Part shown: in pieces, positions 50,880 to 59,971 of the stretch
Layout of the letters: the number at the start of each line of letters is the position of its first letter
Position numbering within the stretch: the first letter of the stretch is position 1
Assembly (NCBI GenBank): GCA_027493625.1
Contig: JAOSKM010000001.1
Span: 382,416-446,415, forward strand
Length of the DNA: 64,000 nucleotides
Reading direction: 5' to 3'
Source of the DNA: Planctomycetota bacterium
GTDB taxonomy: Bacteria; Planctomycetota; UBA8742; UBA2392
The notes under the pieces: generated by a model
Told to the model about the DNA's origin: nothing
What the model saw: only the letters and a program-made list of their open reading frames with translations
The model's database searches: none
Translations under genes and position numbers: made by a program

Positions 50880-50956
50880 CGGGGCGTAGCTCAGCCTGGT
50901 AGAGCGCTTCGTTCGGGACGAAGAGGCCGCAGGTTCAAATCCTGTCGCCCCGACCA
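50880..50956 (+). tRNA. tRNA-Pro(CGG)
   Basis: Cloverleaf: CGGGGCG acceptor stem, anticodon arm cttcg-tt-CGG-ga-cgaag, GGTTCAAATCC T-arm, encoded CCA. Confidence 0.97.
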
Positions 50957-50961
50957 TGAAA
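50914..50961. repeat. att site, left (48-bp direct repeat)
   Basis: Identical to 59924-59971. Confidence 0.95.
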
Positions 50962-51021: not shown

Positions 51022-51861
51022 TTACGATCCCGCGTTGGCCTCGAGGCGCTTCTTGAGAATCTCGCCGCGCAGCTCTTCCATGTGGCGGCGCACCCACTGC
51101 ATATCCTGGTACAGGCGGTCAGGCACGCGCAGGGGAAGCTCCGGCATGCGCAGCCCGCGTAGGCGCTCGGCGGTGTTTTCGTTGACCTTGTCGATCACCT
51201 TCTGAAGTGCCGCATCGCGCTTATCTTCGCTCAACTTCTTCAGCTCGCGCGCCTCGCGTTCGGCGTAGAACGCCTTGAGGAATACCCGGCGGTTGGCTGC
51301 CTGAGCCTCAATCGCGGCGTCCGCTTGCGACTGCTCACCCAGCAGGCCGCTCACGCGCTCATCGAGCGCGGTGTCAAACACTTCCCCGGCCGTCTTCGCG
51401 CCGAGGCGGCGATTCAGGAGCTGGTACAGCAGCCGCCCGGCCGGGTTGAGAGGGTTGCGGCGGTAGAGGTCCGCCAGGCTTTCGTTGACCTCCTGGCGGA
51501 TCGCTTGCTTGATCGTCTTGCCGTCTTCGTGCGCCTCGAGCAGGGCGGAGCCTATTGCTGAAGCCTTGCCGATTCCGTACGCGGCGGCGTAGCCGATCAC
51601 GGCCGCTCCGCCGGCGCCGGTTCCCCGCGCGCGCGACATGACGGCGCCCTTGATGTCGCCCCGCAAGAGCCCTTCATCGAGCAGGCCGCGACTGCGCGCC
51701 TGGTCGATCAGCGAGCTGATACGCCCGGCCTGTTGCGTCTTCCGGCTTGCGACGTCGGCCTTGGCTGAGACGCTGTCCAGCTCGCGCGCGACTCGGCGCG
51801 CGCTGCTTACGGCGTCGCGCTCGTTGAGGTCCAACTCGACTACGGTGCGTTCAGTTCCCAT
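51022..51861 (-). CDS. hypothetical protein, paralog B (tape-measure/pilot-like composition)
   Basis: [12 protein letters not shown]..., Gly/Ala-rich hydrophobic segment, [19 protein letters not shown]. Confidence 0.75.
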
Positions 51862-52210
51862 GACGCTCTCCCGCCGGCAGGCCCGGCACAAGTCCTACAA
51901 GGTCGATCAGGTCCAGCGGTGACGCCTCCGGCACGGCCACCAGGAACCAGCGCCACGCCAGCATATCGAGCTCGCCGGCCTGCATTGCGAACAGCCGCGC
52001 GTCCTCCGCGATCTTGCAGGCGGGCTCCAGGTAGCTGCTCAATCCATTGAGCAGCGCGCCCAGCGTCGCGCCGATCACCGGCAGGCCGCCGACCACCAGG
52101 CCCATGGGTTCGGTCACCTCGCGGCCGTCGGTCACCATGACGCACAGACGCCAGGGGCCAACCGCGCGGTCGAGCGCATCAATGACGGCCTGAAGCTTGG
52201 CGGAGCTCAT
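51851..52210 (-). CDS. hypothetical protein
   Basis: Overlaps both neighbouring genes. Confidence 0.6.
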   Translation of the reverse strand: MSSAKLQAVIDALDRAVGPWRLCVMVTDGREVTEPMGLVVGGLPVIGATLGALLNGLSSYLEPACKIAEDARLFAMQAGELDMLAWRWFLVAVPEASPLDLIDLVGLVPGLPAGERHGN

Positions 52211-53064
52211 GCGCCAACCCCCGCGCCAAGGCGCACTTTCTGGATCGTGCCGCGCAGGCGCTCGCGCAGTTCCTGCTCCTGCTCGATGCGGCGCTGCAGG
52301 GCGGGCGTGAGCTTGGTCGGGAATGACACCGGCTGCAGACCGGCAAGGCGAGCGCTCACGGTTTCGTCGATCTTCTGGAACGCGCGCTCGCGTTCTTCCA
52401 GTCGGCGCTGACGCTCGCGGGCTTCCCGCGCCTGCTGCTGGTCGAACGCCTTCAGGAAGGCGCGGCGGTTGGCTGCCTGCTGGGCAATGGCGGCGTCAAC
52501 CGTGGATGTTTCCCCGGTGATTCCGCTGGATGCCAGATCGACGGCTGTGTCCCATGCCAGCCCGGCGCTGGTGGCGTTGTAGCCGAGCGCTTTGCTCACG
52601 GCCTGGTAGCCGAATCGGCCGGCCGGGTTGAGCGGGTTGCCCGCAACTACTCCCGCGACGGCGTGGCGTACTTTCTGGTCGATGTAGTCTGCGAGGAAGG
52701 ACGGAATGCCCCCGGCTTCGTGCGCCTCGATCAGGGCGGAGCCGGCTTCTCCGATGGTGCCCGCCGCGTAGGCGATCAGGCCAGCGACAAGGCCGGCGCC
52801 ACCGAACCTGGCCAGCTTACCGCCGGCAGGGATGCCGTTGAAGCCGCGTCCCGCGACGGTGGTGAGCAGGCTGGAGACGTTGCTCCCTCCTAGCAAGCCC
52901 TTGGCGTTGGCTTTCTGGAAGAGGCGGTCAACGCGCCCGGCCGTGTTTTGCGCGCGCTGAGCCTTGGCGGCCACGCTATCAAGCTCGCGGCTGACTCGGC
53001 GGGCGGAGGCTACGGCCTCGCGCTCCTGCATTTCCATTTCAACGACGGTGCGTTCGACGCCCAT
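52207..53064 (-). CDS. hypothetical protein, paralog A (tape-measure/pilot-like composition)
   Basis: MGVERTVVEMEM..., shares motifs with 51022-51861 along its whole length. Confidence 0.75.
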   Translation of the reverse strand: MGVERTVVEMEMQEREAVASARRVSRELDSVAAKAQRAQNTAGRVDRLFQKANAKGLLGGSNVSSLLTTVAGRGFNGIPAGGKLARFGGAGLVAGLIAYAAGTIGEAGSALIEAHEAGGIPSFLADYIDQKVRHAVAGVVAGNPLNPAGRFGYQAVSKALGYNATSAGLAWDTAVDLASSGITGETSTVDAAIAQQAANRRAFLKAFDQQQAREARERQRRLEERERAFQKIDETVSARLAGLQPVSFPTKLTPALQRRIEQEQELRERLRGTIQKVRLGAGVGA

Positions 53065-53066
53065 GA

Positions 53067-53789
53067 CTACCCCCTCAGCTTTTTTAGACGGAACATGATG
53101 CGCAGCAGGTCACGGCCTGCCAGGCGGCGGCGGGCGGATGCGCTCAGCTCGGACACCCACTTGTCATACTCGGCGTGGCGGGCCTTGCGCATACGGTCGA
53201 AATCGACTCGCGCCAGGCTGCCAAGCCCGCGGGCCTTCAGGTCCGCGAAGTGGTCGATGTAGTTGTTGACGCGGAACGAACGCCGGTTGGTGACCTGGTG
53301 TTTGATCCCGATCCCGACCACGGCGCGCTTGCCGTCGATCTTGCCGATGATGCGCTTGCCCGCCAGTGCCCGCAGGCTCTTGCCGACCGTTGCGCGGCCG
53401 GTGATCGTGATGTCAGGTATCTTCGGGTCGAACACGAAACCGCGCGCGGTCTTGGTGATGATGCGCGGGCTCTTCAGCGTCTTGAGCACGCCCTTGCGAG
53501 CGATGCCCCGGCGCGAGTCGAGCCCGAGGCGCTTTTTGCGCTTGCCCCACTTGTCGCCGTATGGCTTCACCTTCTGCAGCGCCCCGCTCGTGTTGGCGTA
53601 CAGGCCCAGCCGCTCGTATCGCGCGGCGAACATCTTGGCGATGGTGCGGGCCTCGAGCTGCATGGCGCGAAGCAGGCGGCGCCGCAGGGCGCGCAGGGCG
53701 GCGTCGAACTCGCGGACTTCACGCGCGGCGCCCATGGCGGCGCGGCGGAGATCCCCGAGGTCTCTTGCTGCTTTGCTCAGTCCTGCCAT
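53067..53789 (-). CDS. highly basic hypothetical protein, possibly virion morphogenesis/tail-completion-like
   Basis: GAGG RBS; Arg/Lys-rich; KPYGDKWGKRKKRLG segment. Confidence 0.65.
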   Translation of the reverse strand: MAGLSKAARDLGDLRRAAMGAAREVREFDAALRALRRRLLRAMQLEARTIAKMFAARYERLGLYANTSGALQKVKPYGDKWGKRKKRLGLDSRRGIARKGVLKTLKSPRIITKTARGFVFDPKIPDITITGRATVGKSLRALAGKRIIGKIDGKRAVVGIGIKHQVTNRRSFRVNNYIDHFADLKARGLGSLARVDFDRMRKARHAEYDKWVSELSASARRRLAGRDLLRIMFRLKKLRG

Positions 53790-53874
53790 AGGTGCCTCTT
53801 CCGGTGCGTCCTTCTGCCTGTCGCCCTGGAGCCCGCTATTTTGCGCCCTCCGGGGTGGGCTCCGTATCCGTTCA

Positions 53875-54120
53875 TCACGGGGTCAGGCCGTGCTCCCGCA
53901 CTTTGGTCAGGTACGCGGCGTCCAATTCCTCGTCGGTCATCAAGTCGAACTTTCGCCGGAGTTCGGCAACGTTGGCTTGCGACGTGCGCGCGCACTGCAT
54001 GAAGCTCGCGCGGGCTTCCGGTGGCAGGCCTGCCACGGCGTCAGCCAGCGCGCCGGCCCGGTGCAGTGCGTTCGCAAGGCGGGTGAACAGCTCGACTTGC
54101 TGTTGACGCGTCAACTTCAC
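53875..54120 (-). CDS. hypothetical protein
   Basis: GTG start overlapping the upstream stop (GTGA). Confidence 0.6.
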   Translation of the reverse strand: MKLTRQQQVELFTRLANALHRAGALADAVAGLPPEARASFMQCARTSQANVAELRRKFDLMTDEELDAAYLTKVREHGLTP

Positions 54121-54380
54121 TCCAGGCCCTCCAATAGCCGGGCGAACACGTCCCCGACGTCCTGCGGCAGCAGGTACTTGCTCAGCCACGCGCGCGCGGC
54201 GGCGTCGCCGGCCTTGGCGTCCTGCAGGGCCTTGGCTACGACTTTCTGCCAGTCGGCGGGGCTGACCGTGGCGAGCGTCGCGTCCAGGTAGGCGCGTTCG
54301 ACTTCACGCTTCGGGCGCCCGGGACCGCCGGGGTTGCCCTTCTGGAACGGGCGGCCTCTCGGTTTTTTCTTCGCTGCCAT
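54117..54380 (-). CDS. DUF5681-like / terminase small subunit-like protein
   Basis: GRPFQKGNPGGPGRPKR and A..GD..A..WL..YL motifs. Confidence 0.7.
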   Translation of the reverse strand: MAAKKKPRGRPFQKGNPGGPGRPKREVERAYLDATLATVSPADWQKVVAKALQDAKAGDAAARAWLSKYLLPQDVGDVFARLLEGLE

Positions 54381-54552
54381 TCGCGTTTTGCTCCGCGTCT
54401 AAACGTACAGCCCCGCGCGACATAGTTGAGCGGTGGCAGGTGGTGGCGTCCTGCCACCGACTCAACCGCGCACGCCTCGGGCGTGCTACTGGTGGCCGGG
54501 GTTGGGCTCGCGCCCCGCGCGGGAACCGGACCCCCGCGCCCCCGGCCGTGGT

Positions 54553-55416
54553 CTAATTTCGGCGCGCCAGGCGCGGCGGGAACAACTCCCGCAGCTTGTC
54601 GCTGAAATCGCGGCGCTGCGGGCGGATGCCCGTCTCTTGCATCGCCTTGTCCGTCTCGGCGTCGCCGACTTCGCGCAGGTCACGAATGCGCAGGGGGCGG
54701 CCGTAGACGGCGCGGCCGTTTTCGTCGAGGCTGGGCAGCTTGGCGTAGCCTTGACGGGTCAACGGCACGCGCTCAGCCGTCGCGCCCTGGAGCACCTCGT
54801 AACCTTGGCCGTCGCCGCCGATCACGCGGAACTGCGGGCGCCCCATGGCGTCGGCAGACACGGTGTACTGGAAACCGCGCGAATCCTGGACGATCACGTC
54901 GAGCGACGGGTCCAGTTCCGCCACGATCTCGGCGGCTGCGCGCAGGCCGCGCAGGCCAGACTCGACCGGGAACCACGCCTGGCGCACGCCGTCAAAGCCT
55001 CGCACCAGGACAGTGTGACTCAGGCTGTCGGACCAGTCTTCATGAGGCGCGCGGGCCGTCACCAGCGGTCCGCGGCGGACTGTGACGTCCAGGTTCTGGA
55101 TCTCGGCGTCGGTGGCCTCAAGCTGCTTGCGCAAAGCCACCAGCTCGGCGCCGGCTGCCTCGCGCTCGATCAATGACGCGCGGGCAAGGCGGGCCTCGGC
55201 CTTGGCGACTTCCCCGAGCAGGTTGGCGCGGCGGTCGGTTGCGGCGTCGAGATCACGCGACGCGCGGGCGTGGACCAGGTGGTCCACCAGGTTGAGGTCG
55301 CCGGCCTGTGTGGCGGCCTCGATGCGCTGGTCATAGTCGCCGGCTGCGCGTGCCTGCTGTGCGGCGGCCTCGCGTTCTGCGGCGGTGGCGGGTGGGGTTG
55401 GCTGATTCGTGTTCAT
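54553..55416 (-). CDS. hypothetical protein with N-terminal coiled coil
   Basis: GGAG RBS; 287-aa ORF. Confidence 0.7.
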   Translation of the reverse strand: MNTNQPTPPATAAEREAAAQQARAAGDYDQRIEAATQAGDLNLVDHLVHARASRDLDAATDRRANLLGEVAKAEARLARASLIEREAAGAELVALRKQLEATDAEIQNLDVTVRRGPLVTARAPHEDWSDSLSHTVLVRGFDGVRQAWFPVESGLRGLRAAAEIVAELDPSLDVIVQDSRGFQYTVSADAMGRPQFRVIGGDGQGYEVLQGATAERVPLTRQGYAKLPSLDENGRAVYGRPLRIRDLREVGDAETDKAMQETGIRPQRRDFSDKLRELFPPRLARRN

Positions 55417-55467
55417 GCGTGGCTCCGGTTCGGGTTTGAAATTGAAATGTGCGAGTCCCTTGACGGG

Positions 55468-55815
55468 TCAAGTGTAGTATTTCCGGCTGCTCGGCTGCGC
55501 GGGCGGCATGGGGCGCGGCGGCAGGGCGTCCAGTTCCGCGCGCAGGCGCTCGACTTCGGCTGCGTCGCTGTCTTCGCGGGCGCGCCTGAGCGCGAACTCG
55601 ACCTCACGCCGGATGCGCGTGAGCTGCACTGCCTGCTCGCAATTCTTCTGCGCGATGTAGACTGTGACGTGCTCGGGCCCGTGGTGGCGGCGCATGGCTT
55701 CTTTGTGCGCCTTCCAGGCGTCGCGCACCTGCTGGACCTCACGCTCGGCTGCCTCGGCTTCGCGTGCCGCTTCCGTGGCGCGCTGCTGGGCTTTGAGTTC
55801 AACTGGGTTTCCCAT
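55468..55815 (-). CDS. hypothetical coiled-coil protein
   Basis: AAAGGAAA RBS before ATG 55815. Confidence 0.65.
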   Translation of the reverse strand: MGNPVELKAQQRATEAAREAEAAEREVQQVRDAWKAHKEAMRRHHGPEHVTVYIAQKNCEQAVQLTRIRREVEFALRRAREDSDAAEVERLRAELDALPPRPMPPAQPSSRKYYT

Positions 55816-55867
55816 GGGTTTTCCTTTTTTTGGTGACATTCTTGGTGACCGGCAAAGCCGGTCCGCT

Positions 55868-56125
55868 TCAATTGTGGGTTCGTGAACCTCTCGACGTTCG
55901 TGGCTCACGAACAGCCCCGCTTGCTGGCTGCCTGAGCATCCAGTCAGGCGTCACCCGGCGGCGGTCGGTGATGCCCAGCTTGCGGGCGTAGATCCGGAGG
56001 CATTCCTCGGTCATGGCGCCCGGCCTGCCCTCGCGGATGGCCTGGGCCAGCTCCACGTCGGTCAGATCTTCAAGCGGCCGGGTGTCGGTCAGGTCGACAT
56101 GGTCGGTTGTGAAGAGGTTGTTCAT
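55868..56125 (-). CDS. hypothetical protein
   Basis: ATGA overlap with the rep stop codon. Confidence 0.6.
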   Translation of the reverse strand: MNNLFTTDHVDLTDTRPLEDLTDVELAQAIREGRPGAMTEECLRIYARKLGITDRRRVTPDWMLRQPASGAVREPRTSRGSRTHN

Positions 56126-56985
56126 GCGCTCTCCGCTTCCTCGCGCAATTCCCGCTGATAACGCGCGATCTCCTGTGCGGGTGTTTCTCGTGGAGCTTGC
56201 GAGCGCGCTGCCCTCCTACACCACCGCTCAAACGCGCCAGTCTGCGCAGGCGGCCCGGCTTCCGCGCGCCTGGCCATTGCTCGCCCTGGGCTTCCAATCC
56301 CGGCGAAAGCAGCCTCACCGGCAGCCGCACGGGCCTCAGCCTCCGCTGTGACGGCTTCCAAGCCGTGTGCGTCGATCAGCTTTTGAAGTTCGTTCGCCGA
56401 CGGCGTCCGGCCGCAGTGCACGTGAATGAACTTTTCAAGTTCCACCGCCGCCGCCCTGGGGGTGGTTGGTGGCTCTGGTTCAATGGCTATGGTTTGGTCG
56501 CCACCGGTGGCACTACCTACCTGCCACGGGTGCACTACCCTCTCGCCACCGGTGTCGCTACCTAGTGCGCCGGTGTCGCTACCTAGTGCGCCGGTGTCGC
56601 TACCTAGTGCGCCGGTGTCGCTACCGCTGTTACCTAGTGCGCCGGTGTCGCTACCTAGTGCGCCGGTGTCGCTACCCCAAAGTAGCTTGTAGAAGTTGCT
56701 GTCCGGCTCGTTGGTGCCCGCCTTTGTACGCCTTTCGCGCTTCAGCCACTTGGCGGCTTCCAGCTCGTCTATCGCCCGGTCCACGCTTCGGACGCTGCAG
56801 CCGGCCCGCTTGGCCAGGGTGTTGCGCGAGGGCCAGCACTCGCGCCGTTTGTTCGCGTACCTGTCCAGCAGCGCCCAGACCCGGATTGCTCGGTCGCTCA
56901 ACCCGGAGTCAAGAAGCCGCTCGGGCACGATGGCGTAGTGCCCGCCGACGGGAGATATGGATGAGGATGTAGGATGCTCAGCCAC
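56122..56985 (-). CDS. phage-type replication initiator (HTH_36-like winged helix)
   Basis: LS..A.RV...L..YAN....CWPSR.TLAKR.GCS.RSV.RAI.ELE...WL...R; internal tandem repeats. Confidence 0.82.
   Translation of the reverse strand: MAEHPTSSSISPVGGHYAIVPERLLDSGLSDRAIRVWALLDRYANKRRECWPSRNTLAKRAGCSVRSVDRAIDELEAAKWLKRERRTKAGTNEPDSNFYKLLWGSDTGALGSDTGALGNSGSDTGALGSDTGALGSDTGALGSDTGGERVVHPWQVGSATGGDQTIAIEPEPPTTPRAAAVELEKFIHVHCGRTPSANELQKLIDAHGLEAVTAEAEARAAAGEAAFAGIGSPGRAMARRAEAGPPAQTGAFERWCRRAARSQAPRETPAQEIARYQRELREEAESA
56549..56676. repeat. 21-bp tandem repeats (probable origin iterons) inside rep
   Basis: Six copies of core CCGGTGTCGCTACC; unit ccggtgtcgctacctagtgcg; one unit carries a 9-bp insertion; encodes GSDTGAL. 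Confidence 0.9.
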
Positions 56986-56995
56986 CCAAGCGCTC

Positions 56996-57235
56996 CTACT
57001 TCTCGTTCACAACGATGTAGCGCGCGAGTTCAGCCCGGCGGATGCGCAGCCGGTTCCCGATCCTGAACGCCACCAGGTCACCGCGCGCGGCCATGCGGTT
57101 GATTGTCTTCGGGTTGTCCAGGCCGAGCGCCTTCGTGGCCTCCGCCGGGGTGGCCACCGCCGGTACGCCGGCGGCGGCGAGCTCCGCCTCAATGTCCTTT
57201 TGGCGGGCTTTGGTGGCAGTTTCGTGCAGACTCAT
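56996..57235 (-). CDS. excisionase-type HTH (HTH_17) protein
   Basis: TPAEA..ALG....TI.RM..RGDL.AFRIG..LRI.R.EL; AGGAGG RBS. Confidence 0.85.
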   Translation of the reverse strand: MSLHETATKARQKDIEAELAAAGVPAVATPAEATKALGLDNPKTINRMAARGDLVAFRIGNRLRIRRAELARYIVVNEK

Positions 57236-57530
57236 AATAACCTCCTGTGGTCTGCGCGGATTAGTAACAACGCTCACGACACCTTTTGAAGGTGAACAGC
57301 CCCAGCAGGCGCAGGAGTGCCGCACAAGTGCCTGTCAAGGTTGTTTATAATCCCGCTTGGTGGTACAAAGATGCCCGCGAAGGCCGGTGAATCGGGCCTT
57401 CGCGGGCTATTGGGCGCGGCGTGCCTTGTGTGACAGGCTGCGGGATTTTCAGGGATCGCGCGACAACTTTTCCTCCGAGATTTCCGCCGAGTCCGTTTCG
57501 GGGTCTCTTGTCGACGCATGATCCCTTCCG

Positions 57531-57872
57531 TCACGGAAGCCTTGCCCCCGGCTTCCAGTGCCGCGGCTTGACTCGGCACCGAATAATCCACGCCTCCACG
57601 TCGCTGGGCAGGACGTAGAACCACGCCGATTCAGCCGGCCCCGGTTGCGTAGCCGGCAGCTCGCCGCAAAGGATGGCCTTGCGCAGCAGCTTCACGCCGA
57701 GTCCTGTTCGCCGCGCGGCCTCGCTCAAGGTGATGTGCGGCTCGTCAACGTAGCCCGGCACCTGGCACTTGTGGACGCGCCAAATCAGGCGCTCGAGGTC
57801 AGAAACGGGCACGCCCAGCAGGTTGGCGATCTTCTCAACGATTTCAGCGTCTTTGATCCGGTGCGTTTTCAT
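57531..57872 (-). CDS. excisionase-type HTH protein
   Basis: ITLSEAARRTG.....LRKAI..GELPA......WFYV...DVEAW. Confidence 0.75.
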   Translation of the reverse strand: MKTHRIKDAEIVEKIANLLGVPVSDLERLIWRVHKCQVPGYVDEPHITLSEAARRTGLGVKLLRKAILCGELPATQPGPAESAWFYVLPSDVEAWIIRCRVKPRHWKPGARLP

Positions 57873-58069
57873 CACCAGGCCCTCCGCTTCACGCGTCTGG
57901 ATTCAAACCAGGCGTCGATATCCGCGCGGGTGCAGAAGTACGGGCTGCGCGGCCCCATGCCCAGGCGCATGGCCTTGAGGTGTCCGCGCCCAACCGCCGT
58001 CCTGAGCGTCTTCTGCGGCAGCCCCAGCTCGGCTGCCCATTCGCTGATGCGCTTCACTTCGGTTGTCAT
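57872..58069 (-). CDS. excisionase-type HTH protein
   Basis: ISEWAAELG....TLR.AV.RG.LKA.RLG......F..RADIDAW. Confidence 0.75.
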   Translation of the reverse strand: MTTEVKRISEWAAELGLPQKTLRTAVGRGHLKAMRLGMGPRSPYFCTRADIDAWFESRRVKRRAW

Positions 58070-58077
58070 CACGTCCT

Positions 58078-58347
58078 CTACTTCCCGGCCGCGTCGATGG
58101 CGGCCTGCAGGCTGTCGCGGCAAACCAGGAAGGCATGTGCTCCAATCTTCACTTCAACAAAGTCGGCGCGGTGGCGAGCCTCGCGCGCGGTGCGGATAGT
58201 CAACTTCGCCGGCAACTCCGGTTCGTCCGCGCCGTCGTAATAGCTGATGTCGCCGATGTAGACCGCGTGCAGGTCCACGTCCACAAAAACGCGGCCGGTG
58301 CCGGGGTTCACGGATGATTCGCGGGGGTTAGTATTCTGTGCAGCCAT
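58078..58347 (-). CDS. hypothetical protein
   Basis: AAAGGAG RBS; 89-aa ORF. Confidence 0.65.
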   Translation of the reverse strand: MAAQNTNPRESSVNPGTGRVFVDVDLHAVYIGDISYYDGADEPELPAKLTIRTAREARHRADFVEVKIGAHAFLVCRDSLQAAIDAAGK

Positions 58348-58417: not shown

Positions 58418-59769
58418 TTAGTTAGCTGCCTCCAGCGCCGATGCCTGCCGCTGGATGTAGCCGAGGTCCTGCAGCAGCTCGCGCAGCTCATCCGCCACGC
58501 CAAGCCATTCCTCGACCGTTTGTCCGCGCTCGCGGATGCCATGCAGAGCGCGCCGGTAATGGGTGATGCTGACGTTCTGGGTGTGCCCGAACCTGAATTG
58601 CAGCAGCCCCTCGCCCTCAGGTGAGCCGGCGGCAACGTGTGCAACCGTGGTGCGCCGCAACATCTGCCGGTTGACCTTGCTCCGCGTTATGCCGAGCTCA
58701 TCCTCATACAGCTTCACGCGCGCGGACACTGCCAGCCGCATGACGCGGTCGCGCTTCACTCTGCCGACCAGCGCACCGCCAGCGGCGCGCAACTTCAACG
58801 ACGTGACCAGTTCGCGAAGCAGCGGCGAGTCATGCAGCGGGATCTCGCGCTCGGCGTTCGTCTTGCTCGCGTGAACCAACACGTTGCCGTGACCAAGACG
58901 CACATCGTCCGCCGTCAGCGCTTCGATCTCCCCGGGCCTGCAGCCTGTCAGCAGCGCCAGGGCGAAGTACGGCGCCAGCGGCTTGCGCTGTCGAGCGACG
59001 GACTGCTCAAACTCCTGGACTTTGCCGGCCTGCGGGCCACGGGTGACGTGGCGCCTGACCTTGGCCTTCACGCCGGCTTCCCGACGTCGGAGGGCGTCGA
59101 TCATGCGCAGCAGTTCTTCGCGGTCGAGGATGAGCGGCTTCTTCCGCTCAGTCTTGTAGTGCTTCAACGCCTTGCCGGCCTCGCGGGAGTCGAAATCGAT
59201 GTAGCGCCGGTCAATCATGAAGTTTACGGCAGCCCTGGCGGCGTCCAGAAACCGGTTGATCGAGCTGTTTTCCAGCCGGCCTACTTCGCCGAGCTCGGCC
59301 CGGTAGTCGTCGAGATCGTCCACGGTCAGGCGTTCACACCTCTTCGCGCCAACGAATGCCACGAACGGCCGCAGGTGCTGCTCAAGACGGGCCTTGGCGC
59401 GCGCCTGGTACTCTTCACCGCGATCACGGCGTTCAAGCAGAACATGCTCAACGTAGACTGACAGGGCATCGGCGACGGTGGATCGCGGCCGGTTGTGCTT
59501 GCGCCTGTGCCTGTCCCGCCGCGTCGCGCTCACCAGGTCTTCGGACTTCCGCCTGGCGAGCCTGACGGCCTGCTCGCGCGTGGTCACGTCATCCGCCAGG
59601 CGTTGCCACTCGTAGCGATAGTCGCCTTCCGCCCGACTAACACGCCACTTCAGCCAGAACGCGCCACGGCGCTTGACGATGCTTACGCCTGGGTGCTTCC
59701 GGTGAGACTCCGCGGAGTACCCCCTGAGTGCTTTCCCTCGCCGGCGTCGACCTTCTTCTTCCTGGCCAT
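58418..59769 (-). CDS. tyrosine recombinase/integrase (apparent frameshift at 59720-59724)
   Basis: LLTGCRPGE, SKT, QMLRRT, FGH, THY; the frame stays open upstream through HPGVSIVKRRG.FW; ATG 59769 joins if G5 is G6. Confidence 0.88.
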
Positions 59770-59923: not shown

Positions 59924-59971
59924 CGGGACGAAGAGGCCGCAGGTTCAAATCCTGTCGCCCCGACCATGAAA
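59924..59971. repeat. att site, right (duplicated 3' part of tRNA-Pro)
   Basis: Identical to 50914-50961. Confidence 0.95.

Follow-up and report, generated by a model that had tools for sequence, protein, structure and literature searches.

A putative phage satellite in an uncultured Planctomycetota genome carries a candidate tail-assembly cassette with two diverged helical paralogs

In an uncultured Planctomycetota genome, four co-directional genes at 51022-53789 on the minus strand of the window (the whole stretch of 64,000 nucleotides that was analysed) form the distal operon of an island of 9,010 bp. The island is probably a phage satellite, a lifestyle that we infer, and the four genes are quite possibly a virion-related operon that provides it with a tail-assembly cassette of its own, with C-terminal modules for two helpers. 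The genes for the basic and the helical proteins sit in what appears to be the place where long-tailed phages encode the tail-assembly chaperone and the tape measure, and it is from this position that we infer both identities.

The island is bounded by perfect direct repeats of 48 nt (100% identity, spacing 9010). It is a small integrative element in which an integrase and att sites are combined with its own replication module (Table 1), and the 21-nt repeats within the rep gene encode GSDTGAL repeats. By Pfam and PHROGs at E ≤ 0.1, the island lacks a complete complement of virion and packaging genes: not one of its 14 proteins gave a match to a capsid, portal or terminase family at this threshold, nor could a clear candidate for a small terminase or a pac/cos site be found. 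Most island genes belong to no known family in Pfam or PHROGs. The 287-aa ORF gave no family match in Pfam, PHROGs or PADLOC, and two of its five homologue clusters share their longest-contig sizes with members of the helical family. The 104-aa ORF is uncertain because of its 73-nt overlap with the following gene. The 87-aa ORF was considered as a clue to a small terminase and dismissed: its DUF5681 match (E 1.5e-3, 19.5 bits) falls below the Pfam cut-off of 27.5, and it showed no similarity to the TerS-like protein of a second island. A DUF5681 protein is present in a published virion proteome, with no function assigned to it.

Table 1. Features of the island and its integration site (positions in the window)
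Feature	Position	Strand	Basis or remark
tRNA-Pro (anticodon CGG), integration target	50880..50956	+	ARAGORN; Rfam tRNA, 67.9 bits
attL, 48-nt perfect direct repeat over 3' end of tRNA-Pro	50914..50961	.	repeat search
helical paralog A, 279 aa, pI 9.6, 'P[LI]RV...' type C-terminal module	51022..51861	-	family alignment
orf119, 119 aa, acidic, pI 4.5	51851..52210	-	88% identical copy in G202
helical paralog B, 285 aa, pI 10.1, 'PTKLTPxLQRRIEQEQELRERLRG' type C-terminal module	52207..53064	-	family alignment, AF2 model
basic protein, 240 aa, pI 11.7	53067..53789	-	conserved upstream partner of helical family
possible 104-aa ORF, uncertain	53875..54189	-	tblastn match in L023 weak, E 0.004
87-aa basic ORF	54117..54380	-	sub-threshold DUF5681 match; 51% identical copy in G111 island
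287-aa island-specific ORF	54553..55416	-	also in G202 and G111
146-aa ORF	55468..55908	-	73% identical copy in G202
85-aa ORF	55868..56125	-	open reading frame
replication initiator (winged HTH, phage O/DnaD-like)	56122..56985	-	PF13730 HTH_36 E 1.4e-14; phrog_270 E 1.6e-19
iteron-like 21-nt tandem repeats within rep gene	56549..56676	.	TRF period 21, 100% matches
HTH_17 excisionase/regulator-like gene	56996..57325	-	PF12728 E 2e-9; phrog_66
HTH_17 excisionase/regulator-like gene	57531..57875	-	PF12728 E 1.9e-5; phrog_66
HTH_17 excisionase/regulator-like gene	57872..58123	-	PF12728 E 1.3e-6; phrog_66
tyrosine integrase	58418..59587	-	PF00589 E 5.4e-11; phrog_1 E 4e-18
attR, second copy of the 48-nt repeat	59924..59971	.	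repeat search

Satellites of the PICI and P4 types are of about 10 kb, carry an integrase with a tRNA att site, their own replication initiator and excisionase-like regulators, and use helper capsids. The island resembles them in its size near 10 kb, its integrase and tRNA att site, its replication initiator and its excisionase-like regulators, and would likewise depend on helper capsids, but it has no recognised capsid-size redirection gene, small terminase or primase-helicase, and its cargo comes from the tail module and not from the head module.

No helper phage was identified, and among the sequences of the island's own assembly (87% complete) there is no phage that carries the cassette. 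In the contigs of the public runs X1, X7, X8 and X14, which end at the att repeats, neither an excision junction nor a joint skipping about 9,010 bp was found; short joints, with sides of 20-23 nt, were disregarded. As contigs drop rare forms, the missing junction is not evidence against excision. The depth of the island in run X1 (50.4) was the same as that of its flanks (48.5 and 46.3). The lack of a helper, a packaging signal and a junction, together with the many genes of no known family, would suit the remains of a decayed prophage, or else an integrative plasmid-like element, in which the four genes were leftover cargo with no present role. Such an origin is nevertheless very unlikely: every gene is intact and shows a strong coding signal in GC3, the two att repeats are free of mismatches, and beside the cassette there are no fragments of the genes for the 183- and 463-aa proteins that adjoin it in phages. 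Moreover, related islands at 77-84% DNA identity, with the 287-aa gene in common, were found in another genome, and 13 public runs contain at least half of the island's sampled words.

Within the operon, two of the gene junctions overlap, by 11 and 4 nt, and the third is a gap of 2 nt; with ends that overlap or nearly abut, the four genes therefore look like one transcriptional unit. All of them have a GC3 of 0.80-0.87 against a GC2 of 0.46-0.51, a contrast that marks four real coding frames. The start of paralog A at MGTERT is backed by the family alignment; a start further upstream, the TTG at 51891, is open too. The product of orf119 has a hydrophobic stretch at residues 36-54 (KD 1.96); among the loci examined, counterparts of this gene were confined to islands, where they directly follow a helical gene, and its similarity to a 132-aa ORF located 3' of the helical gene in the G379 island is weak (36% over 45 aa, E 0.035). 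The arrangement with two helical slots is seen again in the G202 island, in the order basic, helical, orf119 and helical, the first helical slot being occupied by a member of a distant clade. No match below E 1e-3 was obtained with PADLOC for any of the four genes, and a Csm3 match on paralog A at E 0.009 was taken as noise.

Paralogs A and B align from end to end with 115 of 296 positions identical (39%, E 5e-53), and the alignment includes MGxERTVVE, SARRVx[14 protein letters not shown] and QAANRRxFLKAF, all of them motifs quoted in an earlier note on this DNA. The description given there of two intact, diverged, full-length paralogs, with a 119-aa ORF between them and a very basic 240-aa ORF upstream, was borne out by the coordinates and the calculated pI, and the element to which the note referred is, by the 48-nt repeats and the Pfam and PHROGs searches, a small integrative one lacking head and packaging genes. 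The Gly/Ala hydrophobic stretch that it had pointed to does exist, and at a conserved position, since it occupies residues 75-126 in each of the 37 family members, but it is weakly hydrophobic, with Kyte-Doolittle 19-mer values of 1.13 in A, 1.48 in B and a family median of 1.28, and therefore it is not a clear transmembrane helix.

The helical family is narrow in both size and distribution. Its 37 members, phage copies included, range from 275 to 313 aa, and 32 representatives were retrieved at E ≤ 1e-3 among 1.84 billion proteins, all of 279-313 aa except one 53-aa fragment. Family matches were present in 4 of the 19 genomes of the host's own family, compared with none of the 381 other genomes of the phylum that were searched. 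Two of the helical clusters, P0005 and P0006, have a longest contig of the same size, 15,438 bp, which would agree with the two helical slots seen in G202. Both A and B are full length, with both termini and every conserved column of the family. As their lengths are nearly those of the phage copies, the remodelling of tail length proposed in the earlier note is unlikely.

The helical proteins are 25-39% identical to the phage copies, and A and B diverge most over their last ~60 residues, where they are 30% identical compared to 45% over the N-terminus and core. Paralog B and P0008, the protein of L004-type phages, share 29% identity in the N-terminus and core and 78% in the last ~60 residues, whereas the C-terminus of A is closest to P0011 (53%) and P0012 (43%). 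Judged by their sequences, the C-terminal modules of A and B are different, each being common to different phage lineages, and the suggestion that the element carries two alleles for two helpers gains support from this.

The basic and helical genes belong to a conserved block in phages. The five loci L004, L014, L021, L022 and L023 have a common order of genes for proteins of 259, 198, 183, 165, 441 and 183 aa, basic, helical, and 463, 656 and 912 aa, and the slot of the helical gene is fixed in all five (the last protein being of ~900 aa). In L014/L017, L021 and L022, the loci with upstream DNA, this block lies downstream of the terminase, portal (phrog_145), scaffold (phrog_206) and major capsid genes. 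The neighbourhoods of the homologues are the structural module of complete (pro)phages, in agreement with the phage nature that the earlier note had proposed for these proteins. The pair itself is constant, as a helical-family gene follows the basic gene in nine of nine loci (seven of seven, plus the window and G061); in G061 the two genes are some 570 nt apart and their matches are weaker (E 1e-13 and 2e-6).

The five neighbour families of 441, 183, 463, 656 and 912 aa are not recognisable as any known family: profile searches against PDB sequences gave nothing below E 0.25 and Pfam gave nothing useful at E ≤ 1, the last large protein (912 aa) having weak tail-fibre or depolymerase matches at E ~1e-3. 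By a crude measure, the fraction of helix-formers is 0.50-0.58 in the basic and helical proteins (0.53-0.58 in the helical ones, from composition) versus 0.36-0.45 in these five. As the neighbours have no recognised family, the reading of the block as tube, chaperone, tape-measure and distal tail genes depends on the position and size of the genes, on composition and on the relatives of the capsid proteins. The major capsid proteins of these loci are of the phrog_283/P22 coat type or of the phrog_212/GP7 type, and among the best 15 matches for each type most records have in their names the 'S' that stands for siphoviruses (vB_BpoS, vB_RpoS, vB_DshS-R5C, vB_VpaS, vB_EcoS). The annotated order in vB_DshS-R5C is a 398-aa major tail protein, chaperones, the tape measure and distal tail genes; head and tail modules are mosaic, only the scaffold and coat of L014 matching this phage. 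If the phages that carry the block are long-tailed, the helical protein is its only tape-measure candidate. The annotated tape measure of a long-tailed phage such as Dinoroseobacter phage vB_DshS-R5C (gp63) would share with the helical protein its slot in the gene order, an all-helical prediction and a conserved C-terminal module; it differs in its 1,018 aa against 285 aa here and shares no profile or BLAST similarity with the island protein. Tape measures span 1.5 Å per residue. At this value, one of 285 aa would specify a very short tail, of about 43 nm.

The AF2 model of paralog B is all-alpha, with nine helices, no strands and a mean pLDDT of 70.7, and corresponds to the extended, nearly all-helical protein expected of a tape measure. 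Tape-measure families gave no Pfam or PHROGs match for A or B at E ≤ 0.1, and the B model had no Foldseek match in BFVD at E ≤ 1e-3; a TMP_2 cluster at rank 12 of the Atlas feature search (score 0.92) is a weak lead. When the basic and helical proteins were searched together, Pfam and PHROGs returned nothing at or below E 1e-3, every Pfam match being under its curated cut-off, tblastn against 50,697 phage records found no match for either, and the wide fold searches with VIA-align gave generic helices only. A metagenome scan with alignment A1 detected no relative and one with alignment A3 detected a single phage fragment, L023. With 9,460 bp, this fragment is of nearly the same size as the island, and for this reason a circular form was considered; it has no terminal repeat and is a piece of a phage.

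A role in DNA delivery is a rival explanation. A and B would then be DNA-ejection or internal (pilot) proteins like P22 gp7 or T7 gp14, the basic protein would be an ejected DNA-associated protein, and the island would carry both to deliver its DNA from hijacked particles. In its favour, the proteins are basic and all-alpha, with a conserved Gly/Ala segment that is weakly hydrophobic. The L014 coat matches Pfam P22_CoatProtein (E 2.9e-19), those of L021 and L022 match Pfam GP7, which we take to be the capsid family of epsilon15, a podovirus, and the sizes of the next two proteins (463 and 656 aa) recall P22 gp20 and gp16. However, these two families are poor in helix-formers (0.37 and 0.41-0.45 by the same crude measure), whereas known ejection proteins are largely helical, the closest cultured capsid relatives, among the best 15 matches per type, are mostly named siphoviruses, and the eight or more genes between the capsid gene and the 441-aa gene fit a long-tailed neck. 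Ejection-protein families also gave no profile match in Pfam or PHROGs, and delivery of DNA from hijacked particles is an unlikely function for the pair. The tape-measure or pilot-like nature claimed in the earlier note stands as regards the all-alpha fold and, probably, the tape-measure slot, but no profile, PDB-sequence or fold link to either group of families was found.

The identity of the basic protein was assessed in a similar manner. Its family has pI values of 11.7-12, and its position upstream of the tape-measure slot fits a tail-assembly chaperone, whereas a small acidic protein with a programmed -1 frameshift product would be expected; a pI of ~12 is atypical for a chaperone. An overlapping -1 frame of the G/GT type was not evident from the gene coordinates, and in complex prediction of the basic protein with B a control scored higher, so that the prediction speaks neither for nor against an interaction. 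The model of the basic protein had no Foldseek match at E ≤ 1e-3 in PDB or BFVD; 3 of its top 22 BFVD rows are labelled 'tail completion' or 'virion morphogenesis' at E 0.75-3.5. The Atlas feature search gave viral clusters, one of them with HK97-gp10_like on 13% of its members (score 0.89, a weak lead). Its assignment to a morphogenesis family in the earlier note found no profile, PDB-sequence or fold link, and the Foldseek check suggested there connected neither this model nor that of B with phage folds at E ≤ 1e-3.

In the explanation that we tentatively prefer, a satellite with its own tail-assembly genes, the basic and helical pair would form a conserved cassette within the tail genes of (pro)phages that resemble siphoviruses and come from the same bacterial family, placed after presumably beta-rich proteins of ~441 and ~183 aa and before others of ~463, ~656 and ~900 aa. 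The island, which has two helical genes, would have taken up this cassette and gained the small acidic gene that lies between the two. During replication of a helper phage, the island may supply its own chaperone-like and tape-measure-like proteins, which would nucleate tails from the tip and tube proteins of the helper, giving chimeric tails like those demonstrated by experiment for the Vibrio PLE. By analogy with the tip-proximal end of tape measures, the C-terminal modules of ~60 residues may dock on the tail-tip complexes of two helper lineages. It is possible, although doubtful, that A and B are alternative tape measures with exchangeable C-terminal modules for two helper lineages, through which one 9-kb parasite could form chimeric tails with more than one helper and spread by them, and that the membrane-like orf119 product serves to discriminate satellite from helper tail assembly.

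Satellites also carry tail-assembly inhibitors, according to the accounts in PMC11364771 and PMC12987554, and the island copies could likewise be dominant-negative decoys that poison the tail assembly of helper or competing phages, a role in defence like that of the Tai/Rta inhibitors. Two diverged copies with phage-like C-terminal modules and an acidic orf119 restricted to islands would be consistent with such an interference device. We regard it as distinctly unlikely, given the integrity of A and B described above, the retention of the partner basic gene and the negative PADLOC result; with A and B intact and the basic gene kept, the cassette looks like working parts and not like decoys.

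A satellite with its own tail-assembly cassette has precedents. In Vibrio cholerae, PLE satellites have genes of their own for a tape measure, a tail-assembly chaperone and a baseplate hub, and with phage ICP1 they form chimeric tails, as described in PMC12987554. As in that description, the island would be a small integrative satellite with a partial tail-assembly pathway diverged from the phage version, the genes at the chaperone and tape-measure positions are adjacent, and the divergence is considerable (20% identity between PLE and ICP1 tape measures in PMC12987554; 25-39% here). It differs from the PLE so described in its Planctomycetota host, in the siphovirus-like heads of the related phages versus the contractile ICP1, in the positional nature of its identities, which in PLE come from HHpred and experiment, and in having two tape-measure-position paralogs with differing C-termini, separated by a small acidic ORF, while a gene for a hub is missing. 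Small genomes with a tape-measure gene, which has been proposed to alter tail assembly, are likewise described for EPIP satellites of Mycolicibacterium aichiense (PMC12822802, which also names the PICI/P4 types). According to the same account, EPIPs also encode a small terminase, connectors, a scaffold and a major capsid protein, as well as a serine integrase. The searches of the island yielded none of these; its integrase is of the tyrosine type, and the candidate gene is present twice.

Tape-measure genes borne by satellites have been reported only in 2025-2026, in PLEs and EPIPs, and altered the view that satellites hijack only heads. In our full-text literature search, with queries that did not include the term, no title or abstract opening among those listed was on Planctomycetota. 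The block also brings to light a phage tail module (441, 183, basic, helical, 463, 656 and ~900 aa) made up entirely of proteins of no known family. The two diverged copies with swapped C-terminal modules are a new twist that leads to a testable model of wider helper range and, if the reading proposed here is true, tail hijacking would extend to a distant, poorly studied phylum.

The four ORFs described in the earlier note were all present, on the minus strand. Their GC content was 0.80-0.87 at the third position vs 0.46-0.51 at the second, a contrast which, in a 65% GC genome, indicates that they are real genes. The helical paralogs A (279 aa) and B (285 aa) aligned over their full length with 39% identity (E 5e-53), and the motifs that had been quoted for them were recognised in this alignment. 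The Gly/Ala stretch, described before as hydrophobic, was found at the same position in 37/37 members of the helical family, but its hydrophobicity was weak (Kyte-Doolittle, 19-mer, median 1.28) and it therefore forms no clear membrane helix. A stronger hydrophobic stretch (Kyte-Doolittle 1.96) was located at residues 36-54 of the acidic orf119.

Features of the island and of its four-gene operon
Feature	Position	Strand	Assignment
tRNA-Pro(CGG)	50880-50956		
Perfect 48-nt direct repeat	50914-50961 and 59924-59971		brackets 9,010 bp
Paralog A	51022-51861	-	ORF call; pI 9.6
orf119	51851-52210	-	ORF call; pI 4.5
Paralog B	52207-53064	-	ORF call; pI 10.1
Basic 240-aa ORF	53067-53789	-	ORF call; pI 11.7
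Four or five ORFs without family	between replication initiator and four-gene operon	-	
Winged-HTH replication initiator	after HTH_17 genes	-	PF13730 E 1.4e-14; phrog_270 E 1.6e-19
Three HTH_17 excisionase-like genes	after integrase in transcription order	-	
Tyrosine integrase	first in transcription order	-	PF00589, phrog_1

All genes between the repeats are on the minus strand, and the four-gene operon is the last to be transcribed. At E<=0.1, no match to a capsid, portal or terminase family was recorded for any of the 14 island proteins, and PADLOC returned nothing meaningful. Against a satellite, no clear small terminase was found in the island, where the DUF5681 match of an 87-aa ORF fell below the cut-off, and the contigs of four public runs, from which rare forms drop out, showed no joint left by excision and no raised depth over the island. 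The initiator gene contains perfect 21-nt tandem repeats (56549-56676), encoding GSDTGAL heptapeptide repeats, which may constitute an origin with iterons within the initiator gene, by analogy with lambda O, whose gene harbours the origin iterons. In one public run (X7), contig depth was ~7-15 over the central island genes (53840-55459) vs 20-38 across the remaining island, which suggests coexisting island variants with another central region.

The helical family was small: a word-indexed search gave 8 clusters, and 1.84 billion proteins yielded 32 representatives (E<=1e-3), which were full-length (279-313 aa) except for one 53-aa fragment. Within the Planctomycetota, the phylum of the uncultured host (401 genomes), it was confined to the host's own family, being present in 4/19 genomes besides the window's and in 0/381 elsewhere. 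The basic protein gave 25 clusters, none of them named. The AF2 model of B, built with the family alignment, was all-alpha with nine helices (mean pLDDT 70.7), and that of the basic protein was mixed, with a small alpha/beta core flanked by long terminal helices (pLDDT 79.2). Fold searches with both models gave no significant match, and VIA-align searches returned generic helices only. Atlas feature searches gave leads only: for B, rank 12 was a TMP_2 cluster, and the basic protein had viral clusters, in one of which 13% of the members carried HK97-gp10_like.

In a custom HMM scan, a helical-family gene followed the basic gene in 7/7 loci, as it does in the window; the pair was also present in genome G061, with weaker matches and wider spacing. 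Five loci were phage or prophage fragments, L004, L022 and L021 (IMG/VR), L023 (metagenome) and L014 (genome G392), with a common order of genes encoding proteins of 259, 198, 183, 165, 441 and 183 aa, basic, helical, 463, 656 and 912 (or 406 + 1158) aa. Wherever upstream DNA was present (L014/L017, L021, L022), this tail block lay downstream of genes for large terminase (phrog_2), portal (phrog_145), scaffold (phrog_206) and a major capsid protein of either phrog_283/P22 coat or phrog_212/GP7 type. Among the matches listed, most of the closest cultured capsid relatives of both types had names with the 'S' tag of siphoviruses, and the best of them, vB_DshS-R5C, has an annotated order of 398-aa major tail protein, chaperones, tape measure and distal tail genes. 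Homology between L014 and this phage was limited to scaffold and coat, so that their tail modules are unrelated in sequence. The 441, 183, 463, 656 and 912 families had no relatives in Pfam, PHROGs or PDB sequences, and the last large protein of the block showed marginal tail-fibre or depolymerase matches. In L004 (7861-8985), a QueC-like fragment (phrog_1550, E 1.7e-18; PF06508) sits between the 183-aa and basic genes, so the slot tolerates inserted genes. In 2/5 phages (L022:9434-10690, L021:9437-10678), these two genes are in-frame, separated by a stop codon and 0-2 codons, which may be chance or may hint at fusion by read-through, comparable with the G/GT chaperones.

The helical gene lies in what would be the tape-measure slot of a long-tailed phage and the basic gene in the chaperone slot, and by composition their products are the sole helix-rich proteins within the tail block (helix-former fraction 0.50-0.58 vs 0.36-0.45 for 441, 183, 463, 656 and 912). 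They are candidates for these two functions, a positional identification that we consider about equally likely to be right or wrong, because it is not confirmed by any match to a profile or fold, a tail measured by 285 residues would be very short, a pI of 12 is odd for a chaperone, and head and tail modules are mosaic. When a complex of the basic protein with B was predicted, a control scored above the pair, so that the prediction speaks neither for nor against their association. The mobile-element and phage-virion context proposed for the four genes is solid, whereas the proposed remodelling of helper tail length is unlikely, A and B being nearly the same length as the phage copies (275-313 aa, 37 members).

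Out of the phage block, the island carries the basic/helical cassette only, and no fragments of the 183 and 463 genes were found beside it. A related island in G202, on two contigs, had the layout basic, helical, orf119, helical with 77-84% DNA identity, together with the 287-, 146- and 85-aa genes of the window's island. In the family tree, its first helical slot holds a member of a distant clade, common to a different island in G379, and A and B formed sister clades (support 97/92). In the G202 island (L015:16641-17131), two excisionase-like genes are convergent to the helical gene, whereas those of the window are co-directional and far from it, which indicates module rearrangement among related islands. 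The last ~60 residues of B were 78% identical to P0008, an L004-type phage protein, vs 29% over the N-terminus and core; A and B shared 45% identity over the N-terminus and core and 30% over the last ~60 residues, and the C-terminus of A was nearest to other lineages (53% to P0011). Judged from these identities, both paralogs are modular. The C-terminal end of a tape measure resides in the tip complex of the tail, where two types of C-terminus would then match two types of helper tip. The idea of two alleles for two helpers gains support from the modular C-termini.

Also against a satellite, no helper phage with the cassette was found in the host's own assembly (87% complete). Its 24-kb contig C4 (L034:1-20000 + L035:1-14262), with a GC content of 59% against ~65% for the window, is a fragment of a phage structural region and includes genes for a virion protein, Neck1/tail completion and a tail fibre. 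There, a recognised Neck1/tail-completion gene is followed by genes for 183, 143, 491, 528, 667, 376 and 782 aa, the same logic as in the phage tail block; the 376-aa protein is homologous to the 406-aa protein of L014, and the 782-aa protein matches a tail fibre family. At one end of contig C2 (L036) are pieces that resemble two proteins of the G392 prophage, its large terminase (69% over 81 aa) and its portal (62% over 117 aa). C4 and this end may belong to a single resident prophage, which would be a candidate helper although it lacks the cassette. A second small island (L016:5600-17125), ~1.1 Mb from the window on contig C1, encodes a distant 377-aa helical-family member (HMM E 6e-8), a small-terminase-like protein (phrog_4044, E 2.4e-8), an excisionase-like protein and three tandem tyrosine recombinases. 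In the G379 island (L013:3963-12446), the same recombinase trio occurs together with a gene of the helical family and with a scaffold-like gene that is truncated (phrog_206, E 1.2e-17).

The island's helical copies could also be dominant-negative decoys, as the earlier note suggested, a reading to which the tail-assembly inhibitors carried by satellites (PMC11364771) lend some weight, though we consider it improbable. Tape-measure genes in satellites have been described in EPIPs (2025 preprint, PMC12822802), and Vibrio PLE satellites are reported to encode a tape measure, chaperone and baseplate hub of their own and to assemble chimeric tails (2026 Nature, PMC12987554). Read as a phage satellite, the island would be a variant of this recently recognised kind of system.
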